Source of the DNA: Microthyrium microscopicum
Lineage: Eukaryota
Reading direction: 5' to 3'
Length of the DNA: 64,000 nucleotides
Assembly (NCBI GenBank): GCA_010405405.1
Contig: MU004235.1
Coordinates: 1,626,538 to 1,690,537, forward strand
In this document: piece after piece, positions 17,393-51,930 of the stretch
How the letters are laid out: each line of letters opens with the position of its first letter
Position numbering within the stretch: position 1 is the first letter of the stretch
Position numbers and translations under genes: made by a program
Notes under the pieces: model-generated
What the model was told of the DNA's origin: nothing
Databases searched by the model: none
The model's input: only the letters and a program-made list of their open reading frames with translations

Positions 17393-19889
17393 CTAAACAC
17401 CAGAGTCAATCTGGTCTGGAACATTGTCAGCGACGTATCCGGCCCACTTGGTGCAAGTGTCAGTGACGGCGCTGGGGATTGTGATGTTGCGGATGTCGTC
17501 TGGACGCTCGACGAGAGCGACGTAGAGACCAGCAGATACGTGCCATGCCCTATTGATTTCAATTAGTATCTTAATCATCAAGCACGATGTGTAGTTTGAC
17601 TTACAAATGACAATGCAGGATGTTGATGCTGGGGTTATCAAGCTCAATCTGGATAACAGTGTACGAGCGTGTGCCATCAGCCTGAGCCTTCTGCAAGAAC
17701 TGCACATCACGACGCTGTGGGTTGCTTGGATTGGTGATAGAGCCGTCCCAGGTGCCGAATCCTTCGGCGAGAACTTGGAAGTTGTGGCCGTGCATGTGCA
17801 TGGGATGGGCGGTAAAGGGGAAGGAGTTATACATGACGAAGCGGACTGTGCCGGAGTTGGGCAGGGTGTATACGTTCCTGTTTTGTATTAGCATATTGGT
17901 AGATTGTATGGGAGAGTGGTGGAGGACTCACCATTCAGGTTTGGGGTTCAATTGGCCTTGGGCGGCGAGCGCGAGCTGAGACACATCATAGTCTACACGG
18001 GCGGAGATGTTGTTGACAGTCCAGAGATAGTTGGTTCCGTTGTTGGTGAAGTCGATGTTGAAAACTTGAGTGTAGAGATCACCGACGGGGTCAGAGCTGA
18101 TCTCGAACTGTGGAACGGTCTGGGTGAGGGGATCGTTGCTGCAGGTATAGATCTGGTCGGATGTGATGTCGGTCTCAGTGGTCGGGACAGCATCCGGATC
18201 CGCATCCTCGTAGTATATGACAGCTGTGGCATTGGGTGCAATGCCGTCGGGAAGAGAGCAGCTGGCTTGACCAACACCAAGTTGGGAACGGAACCAGTAG
18301 CTGCCAGTAGAATCACCAGTGGCTTCAACAATGACATCAGTACGCTGGCCGATTCCGAGGGTAATGAGCTCAGTCTCATATGGAACAATGGGAACGAAAT
18401 CGTTAGCGATGACAGTGAACTTGTGGCCGTCAATCGAGATCTTTTGGAAAGCGTCGGAGGATGGGTTGATAAGACGCATGCGGAATTTCTTTCCAGACTC
18501 GAAGGCGAACTTGGCAAGACCAGCGTTAGGAGTGCAAGGAGCGGTGGTGTTGGCGCAAGGGTAGTTGGCCTTTCCGTTGATAAGATTGTTGTTGGATGGA
18601 TCTGGGAGACCGGTGGTGCTGTTCATGACATCGGCGACTAACTTGTAGTATGGGTCGTGATACCAATCGCCAACCATGACTGGACCAATATCCTCATCGT
18701 AGCCAGAGCACTGGGGAGTGTCGTTAGGACCGTGGATGATGATAGCACCGTAGACTCCACCAGAGTATTGGGCAGAGTAATGCGAGTGCCACCAAGAAGT
18801 ACCATATTGATCAGCGCGGAAAAGATAGGTGAAGCTGTCGCCTGGAATGATTGGGCACTGCGCAACAGATGGAACACCGTCCATGAATGGAGTCTCCTTC
18901 TGGAGCAGACCGTGCCAATGGATGGTGGTACCTTCAGAGTTTCCAAGATTTCCATCAAGATTGTTGGTGACCTCAACCTCAATCCAATCACCCCAGTTGG
19001 CCTCGATGGTTGGTCCAGGGAATCCACCGTTGACGACAAGACCTTGCTTGGTGACACCATCTGGTGCGATTGTCTTGTAGGAGACGTCGAATTTATATTT
19101 GCGGGTGACGTTGGTCTCTGGGACAATTCGGGGATCGATGACAACGCAGTCAGTGCTGTTACCACCAGTTGTTCCGTTGATTCCTGATGAAGGTGTGCTG
19201 CTTGGGATGGAGTAGGTGTTGGTTGGACCTCCAGATAATGAGCCACTGGCTGGGACAGAGCCAGTTGGTTTGCCAGAGAAAGTTGGCTTACCAGATCCTG
19301 TGCGCGAAAAAACCGAGCCAGTGGGTTTAGAAGTTCCAGTTGTCTTTGATCCAGAACCGCTGGATCCACCACCGTGACCACCCTTTGGTGGGGGATTTCC
19401 TTTCCATGGTGGGTTGCTTCCCCAAGGAGATCCAGGTCCCTTACCAGGGAGAGGGCCACCATATCTTGGTGCATTAGGGAGACCAAGATTGCTGTCACCG
19501 TTTTGCTGTTGTGGAGACAATGATGGCTTGAGGTTGGATCCACTTGGGAGCCATGCTGGTCCAGAGTATTGTCCAGCAGCAGGTCCACCTTTTCAAATTA
19601 GATATATCAAAACCAAGGAGGGCATATATTTACCAGGTGGGTATTGACTGGGCACTGGTCTTGTGGTTACAATCTCTGTAGTTCCAGTTTCCACAGCCTT
19701 GCCACCGCCCTGGCCAGCCTCAACTGTGATAGTCGTGTAGACCGTCGTTGTTCCACGAGGTCCACATTTCGATTGTGTTGGGAAAGCATAACTTGTGGCA
19801 TTAGAAGAGTGTTTAGGAGCAGAGCCAGAGGAATGCGCAGCAACGAGGCCGCCGAGGGCCAAGCCGCTCAAAAGGGAGCGGGCAACCAT
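17393..19889 (-). CDS. Laccase / multicopper oxidase (AA1, ascomycete type), 4 exons
   Basis: Signal peptide; copper motifs HWHG, WWHSH, HPMHMHGH and HCHLAWHVSAGL; C-terminal DSGV; introns 19589-19633, 17878-17931, 17550-17604. Confidence 0.93.
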
Positions 19890-24553: not shown

Positions 24554-25774
24554 CTACATCATCGCACATGGATCATCACCCGTATGTGTCCACAGCTCCC
24601 ACTGATCCGTCTCCAAAACTCTTCCATAAAACATCCCCCAATCAATACTATGCTTTGGCGGAAACCCAGCCTCGCCCTCGCACTCCGCCACACAAGGATC
24701 CTCTACAAACGGACACAAACACTCATCGCAATACATATTCCGTGGCGCAGGCTCATTGGACATACTATGGAACCAACGATCCAACTGTTCCTGGCCGACA
24801 ATCAAATAGCACTCTTTGCAAATACTATGCCCCACTGGACACCGTTTGTCAGCAACCGGTTTCTTGTGACTATGAAAGCGTCTTCGCTCAGCCAATTCAC
24901 CGCAGCGCACACAGTACGTTATCTCGTGAGGATCTAGGCTAAATAGGAGGCGTTCATTCGGCCAATGATCGAATTCTCCGCCAAACATGACTTCTTGCTC
25001 GAGGACATTCGTGTTCAAACTCAGCACATGATTCAACGCGAGCGAGGCGTGTACGATTATGGCAGTGCGGACATCTGTGGGCACTTCGTGCTGGTCTAAG
25101 GGCTCCATGGTGACGGTGCCCCAGAACCTGGCGCCCAGTATACCAGCGGGCAGGTTATCTGCGCGGTTGGGGGAGAGGATGAAGCTACGCGGGTGTTGCG
25201 TGGCAGGGCCGTCGGATTCCTCGAAACGTTGCCAATCTAGCCAGTTCTCTGACTCTGGGTCATCGTCCAGCTCGGTCGCATCCATAATTCCAGTTCTCAG
25301 TCTTCCCAACGGAATACCATACCGTCGTGCCCGTTCGATTTGAGCGGTTTGGACTTGTGCTGCCTCATACTCGAACCAGTCTATGAGTTGGCGCTTGAAT
25401 TTCTGGTAGTAGGCCCAGTGTGCCGTCAATTCATCAGTGATCCAGTCCCATTCAAGGAGCCAGTCTTCGTCTTCAGAATTGCCGTTGCCCAGATAGCAGG
25501 GCTGCTTGCTTTCATGGAGGATTGTGCCCCATAGAATGGCTTTAGTGATTTTTCGCTTGTGGATTATATGGTAAGCGAGCTCACAGAAGGCTTGACGCGC
25601 AGCATCACAGTCGTCACAGGGCATTTCATTTCGGTCTAGGCCATGCTTGGGCCATGGTGGTGGATTTCTAGGGGTTATGGCGGGATACACGGGGGCCTTG
25701 ATGGGTGTTGCGGGACGTGCGGGACGTGCGGGACGTCTATATGGGTGATTTCTGCCTTCAGCTCGTCGAGACAT
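24554..25774 (-). CDS. Orphan protein with C-terminal RING-like Cys/His cluster
   Basis: 406-aa single ORF; CVRC..CPVGHSICKEC..CDECLC; N-terminal RPA repeats and a CDDC..C..H cluster. Confidence 0.65.
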   Translation of the reverse strand: MSRRAEGRNHPYRRPARPARPATPIKAPVYPAITPRNPPPWPKHGLDRNEMPCDDCDAARQAFCELAYHIIHKRKITKAILWGTILHESKQPCYLGNGNSEDEDWLLEWDWITDELTAHWAYYQKFKRQLIDWFEYEAAQVQTAQIERARRYGIPLGRLRTGIMDATELDDDPESENWLDWQRFEESDGPATQHPRSFILSPNRADNLPAGILGARFWGTVTMEPLDQHEVPTDVRTAIIVHASLALNHVLSLNTNVLEQEVMFGGEFDHWPNERLLFSLDPHEITYCVRCGELAERRRFHSHKKPVADKRCPVGHSICKECYLIVGQEQLDRWFHSMSNEPAPRNMYCDECLCPFVEDPCVAECEGEAGFPPKHSIDWGMFYGRVLETDQWELWTHTGDDPCAMM

Positions 25775-28700: not shown

Positions 28701-28925
28701 TCCTTAAACACCATACACCAATACACTTATAACACCCAGGATTTTTATCCGGATTGCTCTACTATTTCAGCCTTCAAACCTATTCGCATTCCCTGCTTCG
28801 TCTAACACTCTATCACGAATCAAGCAGCGCACGATCTTCAAGTCTGATCTAAGGACCAGTTTGCGAATATCATCACTTTGTATTTCTACAAAACAATCAT
28901 CTTGCTGGCCAAGTTCTTTGTTACG

Positions 28926-30386
28926 ATGAGTCCAATCGCTGTACTCCTCAGCGCTTTTCTTGGCCTTGCATCTTCGGTTTCTGCTCATACTTGGGCCGAA
29001 CAACTCTACGTCATTGGTGACGATGGCAACTATACTGGAGCTCCAGGCTATTCAAGATTTTTCCAACCTCGCAGTGCAGATACTTCCCTGATGACAACCA
29101 AACTGGTTCCCAATCCTCTAATTGTGGATCAAAGCAAGGCTCCACCTTTAGTTCAAAACAACATTGCCGTTTGCTCATCCGGCCAGTCGACACCTGGACA
29201 AGTATCTCCCCAGTGGCCCTCACTCATCGCCCAGCCAGGAGACTATGTTGCGATGCGATACACAGAGAATGGACATGTTACCGCCCCTCTCCCTGCTGAT
29301 AGGCCGCCGGGCGCTGGTCTCGTCTTCGTTTACGCAACAACAAACAACACCAACAACCCGCTATTCTACGACATTGTCCTCTGGACGGCTAACAACACTC
29401 TCGAACAAGGTCGCCTTTTGGCTATCAATAACTATGATGATCTACGTTGCTATCAACTACCTGCTCGCGGCCTTGCAGCAGGGCGTGACAAAATCACACC
29501 AGCCTCGGGCGTATCCGATGTTGCCTGCGAAACCAATTTCCAGGTCCCCAAGGATGCAACGGCAGGTACCAACCTTACCCTCTTCTGGGTCTGGCAATGG
29601 CCACAAATCGTAAGCCCAACCGCAGGGCAGGATGAAATTTATACTACCTGCCTGGACATGACTGTTGGCTCCAGCAGCCAAGTCACAGCCAATAAGGCAG
29701 CCACTGCAAGTCTAGATGGTAGTAAATACATTATGGGCGTTCCAGGTTTCATGAAGGCCGTCAGCAATTACAAGGAGCGTGCCGCCAACCTGACACTTCC
29801 TCCACAAGCTAACTACTACTCACCTCTGAATCCTCATGGCCTCAACAAAAACCCTAGCCCAGCACCTCTAGGAACTCCTTTGGTACCACACCCAGGGGCA
29901 ATACTGCCACAGAATCCAAAGGCAGCAGCACCAGCAGGAATACCATTTCCAGGATCATCAGCACCAGCGGTTCCAGCCGGCGCCTCATCTGCCGTGGCCT
30001 CTATTCCCACCTCCGCCGTCGTCCCTGTCCCATCTGTGCCCGTACCATCTGTACCCGTTTCATCTGCTCCAGCAGCAGCTCCAGCAGCAGGATCTGCCGC
30101 CGCTCCCCAATATGTCACCGTCACAGTCACACTCACCGCAACACCCTCCCAATGCATCGGCAAGAACCCCATCGCGAGTTTCGCAAGCCAAGGCTTCGGA
30201 GGCTCTGTCTACCCATCCAACATCCCCACCAACTTTCCCACCAATTTCCCATCCAGCGCTCCCAAAGGTCTTCCCGGTTCCGGCGCCCACGGCTTCACCC
30301 AGGCGATCCCAGCAGCAGTGGCAACGCACGCCGCAGGACAAAAAGAGAAGCGCCGGCATGTCAGGTTCTTTGGACGCCATGTGTAG
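28926..30386 (+). CDS. Secreted protein with N-terminal His (LPMO-like; DUF7492-like by recall) and Pro/Ala/Ser-rich tail
   Basis: MSPIAVLLSAFLGLASSVSA|HTWAEQL; YTENGHV; TLFWVWQWP; EIYTTCLD; ends KEKRRHVRFFGRHV. Confidence 0.8.
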   Translation: MSPIAVLLSAFLGLASSVSAHTWAEQLYVIGDDGNYTGAPGYSRFFQPRSADTSLMTTKLVPNPLIVDQSKAPPLVQNNIAVCSSGQSTPGQVSPQWPSLIAQPGDYVAMRYTENGHVTAPLPADRPPGAGLVFVYATTNNTNNPLFYDIVLWTANNTLEQGRLLAINNYDDLRCYQLPARGLAAGRDKITPASGVSDVACETNFQVPKDATAGTNLTLFWVWQWPQIVSPTAGQDEIYTTCLDMTVGSSSQVTANKAATASLDGSKYIMGVPGFMKAVSNYKERAANLTLPPQANYYSPLNPHGLNKNPSPAPLGTPLVPHPGAILPQNPKAAAPAGIPFPGSSAPAVPAGASSAVASIPTSAVVPVPSVPVPSVPVSSAPAAAPAAGSAAAPQYVTVTVTLTATPSQCIGKNPIASFASQGFGGSVYPSNIPTNFPTNFPSSAPKGLPGSGAHGFTQAIPAAVATHAAGQKEKRRHVRFFGRHV

Positions 30387-32475: not shown

Positions 32476-33379
32476 ATGACAGTAACACTAGGGAAGCGGA
32501 AGCGCACACAGCCGAAAAGTACAATTAAATCTACCAAAAGCACCGATTCTGACGACGAATCGCAACACGTCCAAGACGTCTTTCGCAAACACTTCGAAGC
32601 GCAATTCAAACCACTCCCCACCGAAGAAAACACCGCCCAGTCTCAAGAAGATCTAAGATCCGATGCCTCTAGCGACTCCGACTCATGGTCCGGATTCTCC
32701 GAGGACGAAAACACCATCGAAGTAGTCGAGCACACGAACGATCGTCCAGCGCGATCGGACGTTCTCGACAAGCATGAGTTGAAAGCCTTCCTAGTATTTC
32801 TCCCACCACCCCCATTTCTTCCACTGTACAAACTAATTCCCCAACTAGTCCTCCAAACCGCCTCCCTCCAGCACAACCAATACCACGAAACCCTTCAAGT
32901 CCATAGCACCAACACCACCTGCAGACGACGAAGACTCCACTGCCAACCTAAAAAACGACCTCGCCCTCCAACGCCTCCTCTCAGAATCACACCTCCTAAC
33001 CAACACATCCTCCACCCCCTTACAAGCTTCCGGAAAAGCGCGCCTAAAAGCCCTAGATCTGCGCTTCCAATCCCTCGGATCCAAGGAATCTCTTTACAAA
33101 CAGAAGATGCCGATGGTGGCGCGCAAGGGCATGGTGAAGAAAGCTGCTGAGCGGGAATATAAGAGAAGGAGTGAGGCGAAGGAGGCGGGGATTGTGTTGG
33201 AGAGGGTTGTGAAGAAGAAGCCACTGGGTGGTATGTTGGGTGGTAAGAAGAAGGATAAGGGTGTCGGTGGGCCAGGCGTTGGCAAGTTCAGAGGGGGCAC
33301 ATTGAGCTTGAGTAGGCAAGATGTGGCGGATATACAGGGGATGAAGGGACATGGGCCTTTTCAGAAGAAGAGGCGGTGA
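32476..33379 (+). CDS. FAF1: Faf1-like nucleolar pre-rRNA processing protein, 2 exons
   Basis: Intron 32794-32848 joins FRKHFEAQFKPL to NLKNDLALQRLLSESHLL, KMPMVARKGM and GPGVGKFRGGTLSLS. Confidence 0.8.
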
Positions 33380-33483
33380 TGGCTATGAATGGTTGAATGA
33401 TGAAACGATGAATGAGACGAATGATACGATAATCGAATTGTGGGTATGATATTGCGCTATATCAGTTATGTACGTGAGGGTCA

Positions 33484-34570
33484 TCAGTCTACACCGGGAG
33501 CACCTAGAGCTGGAGTTCCCGGTCCCTTTCCGCCCTTCTTTGCTGCTCCTCCACCACCTCGGCCACCCATGAGCATGCTTCCCATCATGTCGAAGAGCGG
33601 GTTTGATTGCGATGGTACCTTGATACCAAAGTACATCTGTCCAATTTCATTCAAGGCTTCATTCCAAGCCGGTACATCTTTCAAGTGGACCTGGAAATGG
33701 CTCCTCAATTGCCGGTATAGGTCCGCGCTTCCTCGCTGAACAGCTAGGAGAAGCAGGCCCAGAAAGTTTAGTAGTGGTATGCTGGGATAGACGCGCAAAT
33801 CTGAGAGTTTGCTGCTGACTTCCTGTACACCCAAGTTTTGACTACTTTGGCCCAATTTGCTGGTGAAGAGGAGGAGGGATTTATTGGCGGCGCGTAGATT
33901 GCCGGTCAGTAGGTATGGGAGTATGGCGCGGGCGGCGTAAAGCGGTGCGGTGTGGGAATCGTCTTCGAGGTACCAGTCGTATTCGAGTTTGACTAGGATT
34001 TCAGGTGAATCTTGCGTGCCGAGAATTAAGTGCTTTTCTGCCTCGTATGGCTCATCCTCTACAACTTCATATTAGCGCATTATGTCAAGACTCGAGAACT
34101 CAACGTACCAGAAGCATAAAGTGATCCTGCGACGTGATGAAGTTCCGGGTCCCCTGCTGGAAACTCGCCGTGCTTTGCAGACCATGCAATCATCTCATTA
34201 ACAAATCTCTTTCGCGTTACTTCGCCACTTGGAAACGCTCTGACTAACGACAAGAGTCGCGCTTTGCTTTGCGCGTCTGGTGTGGTTTCTGCCTTTCCGT
34301 ATGTATCGAGCAGCAGAAGACAGAGGTCACCTCCCGATCCGCCTTGACCTGCTTCTAGGAGAGCCTTGGCCCCGGACGAGAGAATGTCAATGGCAGCATC
34401 GAAATTATCTTGTTTTATGTAGCGCGCGGAGATGACGCGGAGTTGCTGGTGGGCTTCGTAAAAGTCGCCGTCTTTTATTCTGTGTTAAGTTAGCAGTAGT
34501 TGGAGTATCTAAGAGGCTTATTTTGGTACCGTTGTTGCTGGCGGGCGATGGTCTTTTCGATTTTAGACAT
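33484..34570 (-). CDS. GET4: Golgi-to-ER traffic protein 4, 3 exons
   Basis: MSKIEKTIARQQQRIKDGDFYEAHQQLRVI, HGEFPAGDPELHH, PLLNFLGLLL, IGQMYFGI; introns 34480-34529 and 34059-34108. Confidence 0.92.
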
Positions 34571-34719
34571 GGTAACTTAGCACGTCTTGAAAGGGGGAAA
34601 TGCGGAAGTGGAAAACAACTGAGAACTTGATACGGTTGGGTTGAAGGCGGAACACAGCTTGCATGACGTTGGGAGGTTCGATGTGGTGGGCAACCAGGTG
34701 ACAAAATAAATGGCGCGTT

Positions 34720-35175
34720 CCCATCGAGTTTGATGTCTCCCATCGCACCTCTTAAACAAAAGCTACTTTAATTCCCACCGCATTCGATGGGGAATCGAGT
34801 ATTTATTACACGCATTGAATAGGAATAAAATACCTCGGATTCTCATACTTGGTAGGAGCGTGCCACTTATTTCGTAGCCCAGTTGGTGGGGATTCTGGGA
34901 AATGGAAGTCCCTCCAACATGGATTTCAAGTCCAACTTCATCTCTTACGGAGTCTTCACTGCTGCTCTCCTCTCCCCTACTCTCCATCCTCACTTCGACA
35001 TACTCGTCTGCATTTAAAAGGACTAAATATTTGGAAAATTGGCGTGTTCCCAACAGCTTTAATGGCTACTCGCTGCTAGTTACCCATTGACTCGGCATTA
35101 TCCTTGCAATCGAGTCGATTTCCCCATCGAGTGCTTTTCTTCCCACCAAGTGCATTCTTTCTTATCAAGTACTCA
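34720..35175. repeat. ~19-bp unit clusters C and D, including a 19-bp inverted repeat pair
   Basis: Direct units at 34720, 34739, 35122 and 35141; GCATTCGATGGGGAATCGA (34780-34798) is the reverse complement of 35115-35133 with one mismatch. Confidence 0.65.
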
Positions 35176-40747: not shown

Positions 40748-42580
40748 TCAACGCAATAATTCATTGTTTCTAGCCCTCAATCTCTGAACCGTCACCGTCA
40801 AATTGGCCCATCCGGGAATCTCCTTGCTCCTTAAATGAACGATATCGAGAGGCGTACTCGGAAACATCGTTATCGTCCCAGCCTTCACTCCCCCATTGAG
40901 ATAAACCTCAAGAATCGAACGATCCATGATAGCTTGAAACTCCCACCTTCGTGAAGCAGGATTGTGGAAAGGCAGAAGAGGCGGGACCTGTCTGGCCATC
41001 ATCTGATTCATCGAGGGATCACTCAATGTCCAATTTTTACTCGCCTGGCTACGATCACAAACAAAATCTGCCATCCATGTCCCAAAGATGACACTACAGA
41101 GCAATTGCTCTTCGCCTGATGAAGACTTGAATACAAGGTCGAGATTAATCTCCACCGGGTCAGCATTGTCTGGCATCATCACGTACTTAGCTTCGATAAG
41201 TATAGCTTCTGAGTTCGTGTATGCTACGCTTTGATCTAGCGCTTGGCGTACAGTGATATTAGCGTGCACTTCATCTTTCAGCCCCTCTAGGCCAACTGGA
41301 CGACCGAAATAGGACAGATCACTTTCATCGGCACCATGCGGTGAAGGATTGTGGATGAGATAGCCCTCTCTTGGACCAGTAAGTATGCCCCTCCAGCCTT
41401 CTCTGGATCCCGTTCGCACTGAGCCAGCATACTGGAGGTTTGAAGCCCACCCAAGACTAATCACAGGAGCTCCGTCCGCAAGACCAAAGAAAAACTGGCT
41501 TGCATGGTTGTCAGGTCCGAAGTCAATAAAGCGGTCCGTACGATCATCAACGGGACTGAAATGTGTGCCATTGAACTTTCCTGGGAAGTAGCGTGTGATG
41601 GAACCTCCATTGAGAGGCGATCCCCTGGCTGATGAGACAAGAAGAATATAATCTCCAAAGTCGAGGACTTCACCGCCAGGAATTGTAGGAAGATTTGTCC
41701 AGTTCTTTGCACCAGTCGTTTCGACTCGTGGGATGGGCACAAGATTTGGGCCATTAAATTCGTTTCTGGAGCCAACGAGGTTCTGATTCTTGTATACAGA
41801 AGCAAAGGTCCAATCCAAAAGGTTTGAGGACGTATATATCTCGACAATGACCTTCTTCGCAATCACCATGATCCATTTCTGAGTCTTTGAATGCCAAATC
41901 ACCTTGGGGTCATGCATGCTTTCAGTGTCCATCGAGGTAGCCAGAGGGAGATTGTTGGCGTACTTGGTAAAGCTGAAGCCCCCGTCTGTAGAGTAGGCAA
42001 GTGCTTGCTCCTTTGTCTTCTTGGTCAGATGATATTGTGTATAGATCGCAACAACACCGTCTTTTTGCTTCGGGAAAAAGCCAGACGTATTGTTCTCGTC
42101 GATTACAACTGAGCCACTCAAGCTTTCATATTCATCGCACTGTATTGCAATGGGCTGCATCTTCCAATCATATAAATCTGTCGATATCGCGTGCCCCCAA
42201 TTTCTACATGGCTCAGGGTCAGGAGCGGTGGACTCAACTGTCGTCAGGTTAGACTTGCCACGTCTCTTGCTTTGGTACTAACACTCAAAATAGACGTGCC
42301 ATATCTTATTGGCATCAATGAACAAGCCATTTGGAGCACCGAGCCAATCCACTGGCAATGTAAAGTGTAAATTTGGGTGGTTATCATGATCCTGCGCATA
42401 TTTGTACACAAATGGGAATATCAAGTAGCCTCCAAAATAAAGGTACTGAAGTATTAGCACAGCCAACAAGGAAATCCACGGACGCTTGATGTGTGCGGCA
42501 AAGCTCCTGAGCTGTGGTACTTGATGATGCGTGATATGTGGTGTTCTTAGCTTCTCCCAGCTCTTTTCAGCAGAATCCAT
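40748..42580 (-). CDS. GH32 invertase/inulinase-fold protein with N-terminal TM segment; catalytic residues substituted
   Basis: Intron 42238-42282 joins the exons in frame; HFT..WLGAPNG, WGHAISTDL, SGSVVID, HDPKVIW, DFGPDNHA, MDRSILEVYLNGG. Confidence 0.85.
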
Positions 42581-46955: not shown

Positions 46956-49900
46956 ATGCTTTCCTCTCGCTCGTTTGTTAGTGTTTTGCTTGGTTTGGGG
47001 TCTTTGGTTTCTGCGCATCCTGGACATGGTGGATTGGATTTGTTCAAAGTCGTCAAAAGACAGGCGTCAATCACACAGCCTGATAATGGACCTACCAATG
47101 GACAAATGTGTGGTCCTGCTTATGGAGATGCCGTGTGTGATGAAGGATGGTGCTGTGGTTTAGCTGGTGTTTGTGGACAAGGCGGTTATTACTGTACAGG
47201 ACCGGATTGTAAGAACTTGATTATCATGCTGCAAGTCAAAGCTAATCAGACGATCTTCAGGTCAGTTCCAATACGGACCTGCTTGCGATGCCAATATAGT
47301 ACCAGTTGTTGGTCCTGATACAACCAACATCCCTCGACCACTTCTAGGAGAAGTCCCATACGGTACCGCGATTACTCAATGCAACGAAAACGGTGTCTTC
47401 GCTATCACCTTTGATGATGGCCCTTATACATTCACCGAGTCATTGTTGAACTATCTCAAGTCCGAGAACATCAATGCTACCTTCTTCCTCACAGCGGCCA
47501 ACGGTGGCAAGGGCAATATCGGAGCTACAGACAATGAGTACCATGCTCTAGTTCAAAGAATGTTTGCTGATGGACATCAAATCGCCGGTCATACCTGGAC
47601 ACATCAGAACTTGACTGCCATCGGCCACGACTATCGCATGGATCAAATGATCAAGAATGAAAGAGCGATTGCCAACACCATTGGATTAGTCCCAACATAT
47701 ATGCGACCACCATATCTCGAATGCGACACGGGATGTGAAGCAGACATGCTTGCTCTTGGATACCATCTGATAGATATTGATCTGGACACTCTTGACTGGA
47801 CGGGCGACTATGTCAATGCCGAAGCCGCGCTAACTGCTGCGCTTAACATGCCACCCTCCGAAAACAGCTGGATTCCTCTGGAACACGATATCTTGAATGA
47901 AACTGTCAGCACCATGATTCCCTTCCTGGTCAACTTGATCAAAGAAAAAGGATACAAGACTGCCACTATTGGGGAATGTCTTGGAGATGATCCCAAGAAC
48001 TGGTATCGTGATCCCGTTACAGGAGCAGCTGCTGGCCCTGCGCGCGATTATGCGTTCAACTTCACAGGCCAGATTGCTTGCCAGCCTCCAGGAGTCACGT
48101 CCACTGACGGCCAGTGCGGTGCCAGCGGTGGAGGAACCATTTGCCCTCTTGGTCTTTGGTAAGTTTTGCATTATGCTTGCAATAACTTTGACTGACAACG
48201 AAACTCAGCTGTTCACAATACGGATACTGTTCCACTGGTTCTGATTTCTGTGACGTTGGATCCGGATGTCAATTCGACTTCGGTAAGCTCAACATCAAGC
48301 ATTATTCTGTCGCGAAACTAATAATATCGTCAATTAGGTGAATGCACTGGTATGGTTCATGCCTGCGGAGCCAACGCTACTTCCACTGCATCGGCCTCTT
48401 CTACAACAGCCACTGCTTCTGCGACCCCATCAGCAAGCTATTGTGGTCCCACTGGTTCTCTCAGCGCCACTGGTGCCTGCGGTGTGGTAAGCGGCGTTAC
48501 ATATGTCTGTGCGACCGGCAGCTGCTGCTCGCAATACGGATATTGTTCGACTGGAGATGATTTCTGTGGAACTGGTTGCCAGAGTGCCTTTGGTAAGTCT
48601 ACGCAATGTCGAGCTATGAGACAACGTCGCAATATGGCGCTTCTTGATCTGAGAACCATCTAACTTTAGTCTTCAGGTATCTGCAATGGTGTAACTCATG
48701 CCTGCAACACAACCTCGTCTGCCTCCTCCAGTGCCTCGTCAACAAAGTCGTCGTCAACTTCATCCATTCTGTCCTCGACTAAATCTTCCTCGGCTAGCTC
48801 CTCAACTTCAGTCTCATCTACTAAATCTTCCTCCGCGTCGAGTTCCTCGCTTGTTTCCTCAACCAAGTCCTCGTCCTCAAGCGCAGTGTCCTCATCATCA
48901 GCTAGCGCATCCAAGAGCTCATCTGTTTCATCGTCTGCCTCAAGCGCCTCCTCGTCAAGCGTCTCATCTTCAAAGGCAAGCTCTGCTTCTAGCACTTCTG
49001 GATCTTCTTCAGCATCCGTGTCATCGTCTGGCTCATCTACTAAGTCAACTGGCACTGCATCATCTTCTGCTTCTGGGTCGTCTTCTGCCTCCGTGTCATC
49101 TTCCAAGGCATCCTCCGCTCAATCCGCATCCGGATCCAGCTCGTCTAGCGCCTCTTCGGTGGCATCAACTGCCAGCTCTTCAGCAGCGTCATCGTCCGTT
49201 GCTAGCTCCTCCTCACCTGCGAAATCTAGTACTGCATCATCCAGTGCAGCTTCCTCAGCCTCAGCCTCTGCTTCCGTCTCTTCTTCAGCCTCTTCAGCGG
49301 CAAGTTCCTCAGTAGCACCATCAAGCTCCAGCAAGGCTTCTTCTTCCTCGGCCTCTTCTTCCGCAGTTTCATCCTCTGTTGCTGCATCGAGCTCTGCTGT
49401 CGTCTCTTCATCAGCAGGTTCATCCTCTGTTGCTGCATCGAGCTCTGCTGTCGTCTCTTCATCAGCAATTTCTTCTTCTGTTGCCGCTTCGAGCTCTGCT
49501 GCAGTCTCTTCATCATCAATCCCATCTTCCGTTGGTACTTCAAGTGCCGCAGTTCCATCTGCATCAGGAAGTTGTGGAAGCAAGGGTTATGATGCTCAAA
49601 ATCCTGCCGCATTCTACTACAACGGAAACGTTGCGAACACTGCTGCCTGTGCTGCTATTTGCTCTTCCCAAAGTACATGTAAAGCATTTGCTTTCGGAAA
49701 TACTGAATGTCTTACGTACGAAGCTGTTGTCGCTGGTAACTTCAATGCCAATTCAGCCAGTCCATATGCCTTCTACGATATTACATGCTTTGCTTCGGTA
49801 TCAGCATCATCCTCAGCTGCCCCAAGCTCAGTAGTTTCTTCACCTGCGAAATCATCCAGCGCTCCAGCAGTGTCATCTCCAGCCAAGTCCTCCAGTGCTC

Positions 49901-50882: not shown

Positions 50883-51930
50883 CTACACGGTAGGCCACCC
50901 TCCGTCAAACCTCACCCTATTCCACCCAAACTTCTTCTGCCCATCAGCATACCCAATCCGTGTATCAACGTAATGGTAGTAGATGATCGGACCCATACTC
51001 GGATCATCATACACGCCTTGCCCACCTGGCGCATACACCCAGTCATGGCTCGGCAACACCGCGGTTCCGCCTCCGCTCTTGCAGTTCTTACCATCGCGAT
51101 CGACATACGGGCCAGTCGGTCCCCCATTCGACACACACGCTAGAATCTTATACTCCTGTCCTCGCGCTGGCCGATTCTTGTCCAGCGCACAGCATTTGCC
51201 TGCCGAGAAGAACAGCCACCATTTCCCACCGTTCTTGAAAATGTACGGCGCTTCAACGGCATGTTCGCCAGAGGGCTGGAATGCGATTTGCACGTCAGAA
51301 CCTGTTTTGCGGATGCGGCCTTCGGTGATGGAGACGGGTGCGATGTAGAGATCGGTCCAGAAAGAGCCGAACGTTATGTAGGCTGCGTCAGGCGCGAGGA
51401 CGAGATTTCCGTCAATGGCGTTGTATTTTGCGTTTTTGGAGGAGCGGATGCCAGTTTCGCCCCTATCGGTCCAGGACCCGACGTCCATGGTGGAAGAGGT
51501 TGCGTAGCCGATGGCAGAGTCTTGAGAGCCAAAGGCAGAGACGGCGTAGAGCATGTAGTATAGGGAACCGATTTTAGTTACGTCGGGGGCCTATGCGAAC
51601 GACGGGAGCGTTAGACATATCTCATAACTGGGAACAAGGTAAATTGAATGGGGGAAGAAAACGTACCCAGAGATCCTCGCGGCCCTTGAGATTGATGCTA
51701 GAGCCACGCGGTATGGCGGCGCCTTTGTAGACCCAGGGACCAGTGATGTTTGGCGCAGTGTGTATTGCGATCTTGCCGTTCGTCGAGAATCGGAAGTATG
51801 TGCCATCATTGCGTTTTATTATAGCTGGATCGTGAGCGTTGCCGCATGTGCCGGTACATGCTAGAGGCGTAGAGTATGCTGATACCAGGGCAGCGAAAAT
51901 GTTAAGCCATATTAGAATGGTGGTCGCCAT
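50883..51930 (-). CDS. GH43 endo-1,5-alpha-L-arabinanase (AbnA-like), 2 exons
   Basis: Signal peptide; AHDPAIIKRNDGTYFRFST, DLWAPDV, YNAIDGN, FGSFW, AVEAPY, YAPGGQGV; intron about 51591-51665. Confidence 0.92.

Follow-up and report, generated by a model that had tools for sequence, protein, structure and literature searches.

Does a secreted fungal protein that looks like a lytic polysaccharide monooxygenase (LPMO) also work like one? The question is raised by a gene of Microthyrium microscopicum (GenBank assembly GCA_010405405.1), at 28926-30386 of a 64,000-nucleotide stretch of contig MU004235.1 (forward strand, 1,626,538 to 1,690,537; hereafter the window, whose numbering is used throughout). 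The original prediction, made from the sequence alone, had read its product as an unclassified histidine-brace copper protein. Our results place the product in the DUF7492 family, which, judging from structural models, is a strong candidate to stand within the LPMO superfamily as one more family beside the eight that are recognized (AA9-11 and AA13-17; PMC10952591; 10.1101/2025.11.04.686606; papers are cited here for the passages concerned). The modeled resemblance suggests that the protein probably works like an LPMO too, and the reading that we tentatively favor is LPMO-like action on a polysaccharide of the fungus's own cell wall (chitin or glucan).

The DUF7492 identity, which had been offered from recall, proved correct: residues 18-262 match the Pfam model (PF24320) with E=2.3e-62 and 211 bits, against a cut-off of 27, over model positions 1-252 of 265. 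A phmmer search of representatives at 50% identity returned 470 proteins at E<=0.001. Named homologues, annotated as hypothetical or DUF7492 proteins, come from Venturia, Tothia, Plenodomus, many Xylariales, Diaporthe, Cytospora, Lomentospora, Aspergillus (A. fumigatus AFUA_2G03690, A. oryzae), Polytolypa, Emydomyces, Pseudogymnoascus, Pleopsidium and others. These sources represent what we take to be the main filamentous ascomycete classes (Dothideomycetes, Sordariomycetes, Eurotiomycetes including Onygenales, and Leotiomycetes, together with lichen formers); by these labels the family is spread across filamentous ascomycetes, and its named members are ascomycete only. One homologue (P0284) is labelled "Candidatus Bathyarchaeota archaeon"; it lies on a 4.2 kb contig, shares 69% identity with a fungal member and is probably a contaminant of the bin.

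The gene and its product comprise the following elements:

28926-30386, plus strand: single open reading frame (ORF) of 486 amino acids.
28926-28985, plus strand: predicted signal peptide of 20 amino acids, hydrophobic and ending V-S-A (from the sequence; pattern kept upstream of the His in homologues).
28986-28988 (CAT), plus strand: His1 of the mature protein (His21 of the precursor), predicted N-terminal copper ligand (from column conservation).
28986-29669, plus strand: DUF7492 core, mature residues 1-228, predicted LPMO-type beta-sandwich (from Pfam, the AlphaFold2 model and VIA-align).
29172-29651, plus strand: four conserved cysteines (63, 155, 181, 222; from the alignment), putatively paired 63-222 and 155-181.
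29265-29276, plus strand: E-N-G-H motif, with His97 (codon 29274-29276) the predicted second brace histidine (from conservation and structural register).
29634-29642, plus strand: E217-x-Y219, predicted second-sphere Glu (Glu217 at 29634) and axial Tyr (Tyr219 at 29640; from conservation and register).
29670-29825, plus strand: C-terminal extension of the domain, mature residues 229-280, A-V-x-x-Y/F-x-x-R-x-A (conserved in alignments and included in VIA alignments).
29826-30323, plus strand: low-complexity Pro/Ala/Ser/Thr linker (from the sequence).
30324-30386, plus strand: basic C-terminal tip with KRRH (30348-30359), net charge +5 over the last 20 amino acids, and the stop codon.

All of the motifs on which the original prediction had relied (YTENGHV, TLFWVWQWP, EIYTTCLD, a Pro/Ala/Ser linker and KRRH) are present at the locus. 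The predicted mature protein starts H-T-W after the leader, with TLFWVWQWP and EIYTTCLD downstream, and VIA alignments of the C-terminal extension to AA9 and AA11 structures reach model residue 279-280.

Conservation of the putative copper ligands is nearly absolute. Across 463 homologues, a redundant set biased to intronless gene calls, every one of the 440 proteins with the His1 column has His there (the column is missing in the other 23), and all 459 with the later column keep E-N-G-H97. Of 461 residues at position 219, 458 are Tyr and 3 Phe; at position 217, 433 are Glu, 26 Gln and 2 Gly. A subset of 166 sequences at <70% identity behaves alike: His1 in 159/159, His97 in 166/166, 163 Tyr and 2 Phe at 219, and 146 Glu and 19 Gln at 217. 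The CAT codon at 28986 does stand directly after V-S-A, as had been claimed, and a heuristic leader pattern recurs among the first 178 homologues, of which 168 have the column (the other 10 are N-terminally truncated gene calls): A, G, S or C directly precedes His1 in 167/168 (436/440 in the full set), a Met lies 14-35 residues upstream in 165/168, and a hydrophobic stretch is present in 163/168. Since His1 is conserved in 168/168 of these homologues, its position after the leader is more than chance, and conservation together with the heuristic points to cleavage at VSA/H, which would expose His1. Glu94 and Asp152 are invariant acidic residues, either of which might conceivably take the place of the Asp that serves X325 as fourth equatorial ligand. 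All four cysteines are kept in 434/463; Cys63 and Cys222 are jointly lost in 15 proteins, mostly one Microascales clade (P0189/P0190/P0281-P0290), in what may be about one event, and this clade still keeps the His/His/Tyr set. Because Cys63 and Cys222 disappear together, we infer disulfides 63-222 and 155-181.

Sequence comparison links the family to no characterized LPMO. No LPMO Pfam model matches the query at E<=1, and phmmer finds no PDB sequence for the domain at E<=10. Searched with the family profile, the PDB sequences gave AA11 chains as the only LPMO matches (E 0.85; in another search, E 0.65 as the sole match), the latter aligning E-I-Y-T-x-C-x-D with E-L-Y-M-N-C-A-D over the last two strands only; neither phmmer nor the profile found significant similarity to characterized AA11 enzymes. 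For AA9 (PF03443) there was no query match at E<=1, one of 45 members matched at E=0.017, and no PDB sequence matched. LPMO_10 (PF03067), tried for AA10, AA15 and AA16, likewise had no query match, weak matches in 4/45 members (best E=0.0061) and no PDB match. Neither the PDB members of AA13 and AA14 nor Pfam LPMO_AA14 (query and 45 members) gave a match, nor did the Pfam BIM1-like model for X325/Bim1 (query and 45 members). An hhalign comparison of the family with the genome's own AA16-like protein was set aside: it gave 0.6% probability, covered the last two strands and was uninformative for His97. We saw no AA14 match in the host genome, which says nothing on absence. With no significant match to any LPMO family model or PDB sequence, DUF7492 appears to be a separate branch of the superfamily, and on these Pfam and PDB comparisons the view that the protein is not AA9, AA11, AA13, AA14 or AA16 stands.

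The fold, by comparison, could be placed. The AlphaFold2 model of mature residues 1-280, built on a 148-sequence alignment, has a predicted local distance difference test score (pLDDT) of 88.1 and a predicted template modeling score (pTM) of 0.90. Of the 21 PDB matches that Foldseek gave at E<=0.001, all those listed are LPMOs. In a VIA-align database of 48,161 representatives, the top 21 chains are all LPMO-fold (AA9, AA10, AA11, AA13, AA15, fusolin and X325; Z 7.4-10.1, identity 9-17%), as are all 20 chains at Z>=8. By family, Z is 10.1 for AA9 (root-mean-square deviation (rmsd) 3.9, 159 residues aligned), 9.4 for AA10, 9.2 for AA11, 9.1 for AA15, 8.5 for fusolin, 8.3 for AA13, 8.2 for X325, 7.2 for AA14 and 6.4 for AA16; no chain labelled AA17 was among the matches listed, and the first unrelated chain was NIS1 (Z 7.2). 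A second VIA comparison gave the LPMO fold in 50/50 rows, with Z up to 10.5 (AA9). Scores within 1 Z unit tie, so the protein is about equally distant from AA9, AA10, AA11 and AA15. The LPMO fold, for which the original prediction had proposed a check by AlphaFold and Foldseek, is what these searches returned. ESM Atlas, with its own model, found the same LPMO neighbors at template modeling (TM) scores of 0.46-0.56. Its feature matches outside DUF7492 scored 0.78-0.85, a range that shuffled proteins also reach, and were kept as leads only. Against viral models Foldseek found no match at E<=0.001, with GP37/fusolin at E 0.02-0.03.

The register of the predicted copper site was worked out from where structural alignments start and stop, on the assumption of a gap-free strand. 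With axial residue numbers taken from papers on 16 structures, and residues counted backward from the final aligned pair, Tyr219 coincides exactly with the axial residue in 14, which bears out the earlier placement of E-x-Y on the axial strand. The matched residues are Tyr184 of TdAA15A (PMC5823890), Tyr224 of AoAA13 (PMC4338556), Tyr158 of MtAA16A (PMC10088020), Phe197 of CjAA10B (PMC12884475, where no PDB code is printed), Phe208 of AsLPMO10B, with Glu217 on its Glu206 (PMC9361615), and those tabulated in PMC5094447 for 4OY7, 3UAM, 4A02, 2YOW, 4OY6 (number taken from the row of 4OY8, the same protein), 4MAI, 2VTC, 4EIS and 4D7U. HiLPMO9B (5NNS) stayed outside this count, its residue numbers not being found in the parts of PMC6124812 concerned. 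The E/Q-x-Y/F pattern conforms to the N/Q/E-x-F/Y motif of the last strand that PMC5320794 describes for catalytic LPMOs. For the second histidine, mature residues 85-230 were folded alone (pLDDT 92.7), and the first aligned pair marked the strand leading to His97; this half-domain model was used solely for strand register. His97 lies 12 residues past Gly85, and the published second His is within 1-2 residues of that spacing in 8/10 structures (13 residues past the anchor in 4OY7, 7OKR, 4A02, 5MSZ and 4MAI; 14 in 9I1U, 2VTC and 4EIS).

In the mechanism that we propose, the signal peptide would be removed before His1, as conservation suggests, and one copper would be held by His97 and by the amine and imidazole of His1, with Tyr219 as the axial residue and Glu217 as a second-sphere residue. 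Judging from these residues and their structural register, copper binding at His1/His97 with an axial Tyr219 is very probable. Cu(II) would then be reduced and would activate hydrogen peroxide (H2O2) or O2, as in known LPMOs, and by analogy with them the protein is likely to be a redox enzyme. Polysaccharide would be oxidatively cleaved, the fungal wall being a likelier target than the plant wall; the analogy makes cleavage of a polysaccharide slightly better than an even prospect. The long linker and basic tip might, more faintly, tether the protein at the hyphal surface.

The case for an own-wall substrate is circumstantial and draws on distribution and architecture: members are present in lineages that do little plant degradation, the genome holds 2 copies against 54 AA9 matches, and there is no carbohydrate-binding module (CBM) and no neighborhood of carbohydrate-active enzymes (CAZymes). 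Onygenales and lichen formers have little of a plant-degrading lifestyle. The host genome searched (37.1 Mb, 58 contigs) contains 2 DUF7492 matches versus 54 exon-level AA9 matches. The second gene (contig C2, L001 1402-2277, minus strand) encodes 291 amino acids, the domain only, and belongs to a separate clade, with 37% identity over the domain; being tail-less, it is a convenient expression target. It shares the A/H-T-W, ENGH and E-Y-Y-T-T-C motifs and stands divergently beside a secreted ferritin-like gene (PF13668).

Most homologues resemble the query in architecture, with more than 120 residues past the domain in 343/463. These long tails average 51% P+A+S+T, and the linker is probably disordered and O-glycosylated, judging from its composition; net charge is at least +3 over the last 20 residues in 263/343, versus 8/343 in a control window. 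No GPI-type C-terminus was found (4/463 ends are mildly hydrophobic) and no CBM-like module (at least 4 Cys in 3/463 tails, none CBM1-like). Among the first 178 homologues, 53 finish with [AV]-[KR]-F-[RFH]; the basic tip often closes with an S-A-K-F-R-like motif that has KR/RR before it, which could be a Kex2-type processing site. In the linker of the Pleopsidium flavum homologue (P0314) there is a PF00399 (PIR repeat) match with one degenerate repeat, a faint hint, from sequence, of wall attachment; a strict PIR pattern occurs in none of the 463 proteins.

Genomic context was sampled at 82 loci (53 groups at 85% identity, 38 with at least 3 kb of flank). The commonest neighbor, a metallo-beta-lactamase-fold gene, reaches only 7 groups and none is common to the window, so there is no conserved gene cluster. 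The only recurring CAZyme neighbor is GH76 (3/53 groups; L036, L040, L041, L076), an adjacency that is probably local synteny.

Several observations weigh against an LPMO-like enzyme acting on its own wall. The three-dimensional geometry of His1, His97 and Tyr219 is deduced from alignment end-points. Foldseek TM-scores are low (0.26-0.47) and VIA rmsd is 3.2-4.9 A. The axial register is off in 5FJQ (by 2) and 4EIR (by 1), terminal aligned pairs may slip by 1-2 residues, and the pairing of His1 tells little because it and its structural partners are chain starts. In the AA9s 4EIR and 4D7U the second His is 26-28 residues past the anchor, an offset that we attribute to the AA9 L3 insert. The half-domain model finds its best matches in the Magnaporthe effector NIS1 (8XGL, Z 7.9-8.2), possibly a distant fold relative by this comparison, and in immunoglobulin (Ig) and fibronectin type III (FN3) folds, with LPMOs at Z 5-5.6. 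A conserved gene neighborhood is likewise missing. The chemistry itself would not be new, several look-alike families have proved non-lytic, and the activity of AA14 is disputed (bioRxiv 10.1101/2025.11.04.686606).

A non-lytic His-brace copper oxidase or peroxygenase of the AA16/AA14 kind, which would oxidize small reductants and feed H2O2 to partners, is the main rival because MtAA16A, with a full site, cuts nothing. According to the passages on it in PMC10088020, MtAA16A (7ZE9) has the same His/His/Tyr/Gln set and cleaves no polysaccharide, so that a complete His-His-Tyr-Gln site is insufficient for lysis. AA14 (5NO7) shares the His-brace with axial Tyr and is described as having a long, disordered, low-complexity tail with a basic tip and no CBM, an architecture much like that of DUF7492 (10.1101/2025.11.04.686606). 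However, AA16 and AA14 match the fold less well (Z 6.4 and 7.2, versus 9-10.5 for AA9, AA10, AA11 and AA15), there is no LPMO_AA14 match, and the alignment of DUF7492 has many conserved aromatic columns, on whichever face of the protein these lie. We consider such an oxidase rather unlikely, though a serious contender.

Alternatively, the protein could be a true LPMO with a nutritional role on plant or other external polysaccharide (cellulose, hemicellulose or pectin). The best structural scores do belong to cellulose-active AA9 enzymes (Z 10.1-10.5), tied within about 1 Z with AA10, AA11 and AA15, and the host genome is AA9-rich. The AA9s HiLPMO9B (5NNS), CvAA9A (5NLT) and NcLPMO9C (4D7U) reach a Foldseek E of about 1e-4 with the axial Tyr in register, yet identity is 9-17%, DUF7492 mostly has Glu where AA9 has Gln, and it carries no CBM1. 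The lack of CBM-like tails, the presence in Onygenales and lichen formers, the mere two copies here and the absence of a recurring CAZyme neighbor other than GH76 all argue for a different substrate, and we regard a plant-directed role as unlikely.

Less likely still is a surface protein that binds or buffers copper in the manner of X325/Bim1, with no redox role. LaX325 (6IBH) is secreted, has His1 and matches the model at Z 8.2-8.6; X325 has the brace and, in the sections of PMC10952591 concerned, no LPMO activity. A similar basic, His-containing tail of one AA14 protein is described as binding copper and inhibiting fungal spores (10.1101/2025.11.04.686606). X325 proteins are nonetheless about 150 amino acids long, glycosylphosphatidylinositol (GPI)-anchored and equipped with an Asp ligand (PMC10952591), and this role is less likely because DUF7492 keeps E/Q-x-Y/F and has no GPI-type end, and because BIM1-like genes (4 matches) exist separately in the genome.

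It is improbable that DUF7492 belongs, as a far-diverged subfamily, to a family already described, for which AA11 would be the most plausible choice. AA11 (AoAA11 4MAI/4MAH, AfAA11B 9EXJ/9HDG, 7P3U) is secreted, fungal and built on His1, a second His and E-x-Y-x-x-C; it gave the only LPMO sequence-profile matches and the highest structural-alignment identities (15-20%, the top ones 17-20%), and its C-terminal extension aligns. The profile E-values of 0.65-0.85 are not significant, however, the single sequence finds no PDB match at E<=10, and Z (8.8-9.5) is no higher than for AA9, AA10 or AA15. DUF7492 moreover starts H-[ST]-W, carries a D-D-x-x-C motif and marks its second His with an E-N-G-H motif of its own, which is followed by an insert of about 12 residues. 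Finally, an Ig-like secreted protein whose histidines form no copper brace is very improbable: although the half-domain matches NIS1/FN3 as well as or better than LPMOs and the site geometry is a predicted one, an invariant His stands at the predicted mature N-terminus, a second His and a Tyr occupy LPMO positions, and the whole-domain search ranks 21 LPMO-fold chains over every other fold.

Two further comparisons bear on our preferred reading of DUF7492 as an unclassified LPMO-superfamily family. AA10 and AA15 (ScLPMO10C 4OY7, AsLPMO10B 7OKR, TdAA15A 5MSZ) agree in fold (Z 8-9.4), axial register and second-His spacing (13 vs 12), whereas DUF7492 has a larger domain, named members in ascomycetes only and at most weak LPMO_10 matches. 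The Egh16-like TrsA of Arthrobotrys flagrans is a precedent for a fungal domain family becoming a proposed new LPMO family, with a structure and copper-dependent oxidase activity (PMC12377627). ESM Atlas relates DUF7492 to an Egh16 cluster at TM 0.55, but Egh16 is a different Pfam family (PF11327) with no cross-match, and TrsA has an axial Phe (PMC12377627).

The gene model itself is simple. A longer ORF starting with TTG at 28878 was dropped and the ATG preferred because homologues begin near the ATG. In one public run, whose kind we guess to be RNA, a single contig spans 28088-30623 with zero gaps or mismatches, and three spliced joints fall in neighboring genes; this fits an intronless, transcribed gene, for a single run kept as contigs in which DNA admixture is possible. 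No public run recorded as RNA covers the gene. The whole domain lies within one open frame at 79/82 loci, in a search that favors such loci, and the family may be mostly intronless. The spliced neighbors are 32476-33379 (plus strand; joint 32793/32849, GT..AG), whose product has weak Nop25 similarity, and 33440-34743 (minus strand; joints 34058/34109 and 34479/34530, CT..AC). A 406-amino-acid ORF at 24554-25774 (minus strand), rich in Cys and His in its C-terminal part and lacking a significant Pfam match, is also contig-covered in this run. CAZyme or oxidase exons lie 10-21 kb off, none adjacent to the gene: a multicopper oxidase (17928-18884, minus), GH32 (40748-42160, minus), a polysaccharide deacetylase (47560-48162, plus) and GH43 (50883-51554, minus).

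A literature search, most subscription papers excepted, found none that names DUF7492 or five Aspergillus orthologue identifiers, and InterPro text may mention the fold. Topic searches, including His methylation, found no paper on the family as judged by titles and abstract openings. In the passages concerned of an A. nidulans His-methylation study the four proteins listed are different ones, and five DUF7492 motifs are absent from its 11 supplements; main-text passages of a Macrophomina preprint treat AA9 only. The relevant part of PMC10714830 reports three unannotated structure-search matches (PutMoC, E and O) and gives no sequences; one could be DUF7492.

Should DUF7492 prove to be a further LPMO family, equally far from the known ones, a role could be assigned to a widespread "hypothetical protein" (A. 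fumigatus AFUA_2G03690, A. oryzae). A bolder version, which we hold to be doubtful, is that these proteins are the first members of a new LPMO family in CAZy, present in most filamentous ascomycetes, that oxidatively opens a fungal-wall polymer (beta-1,3/1,6- or alpha-1,3-glucan) during growth or development, with the basic tip serving as a wall anchor or a released peptide. Because the predicted ligands are named (His1, His97, Tyr219, Glu217), a test is routine, and it would directly address whether fungi remodel their own walls with dedicated copper enzymes.

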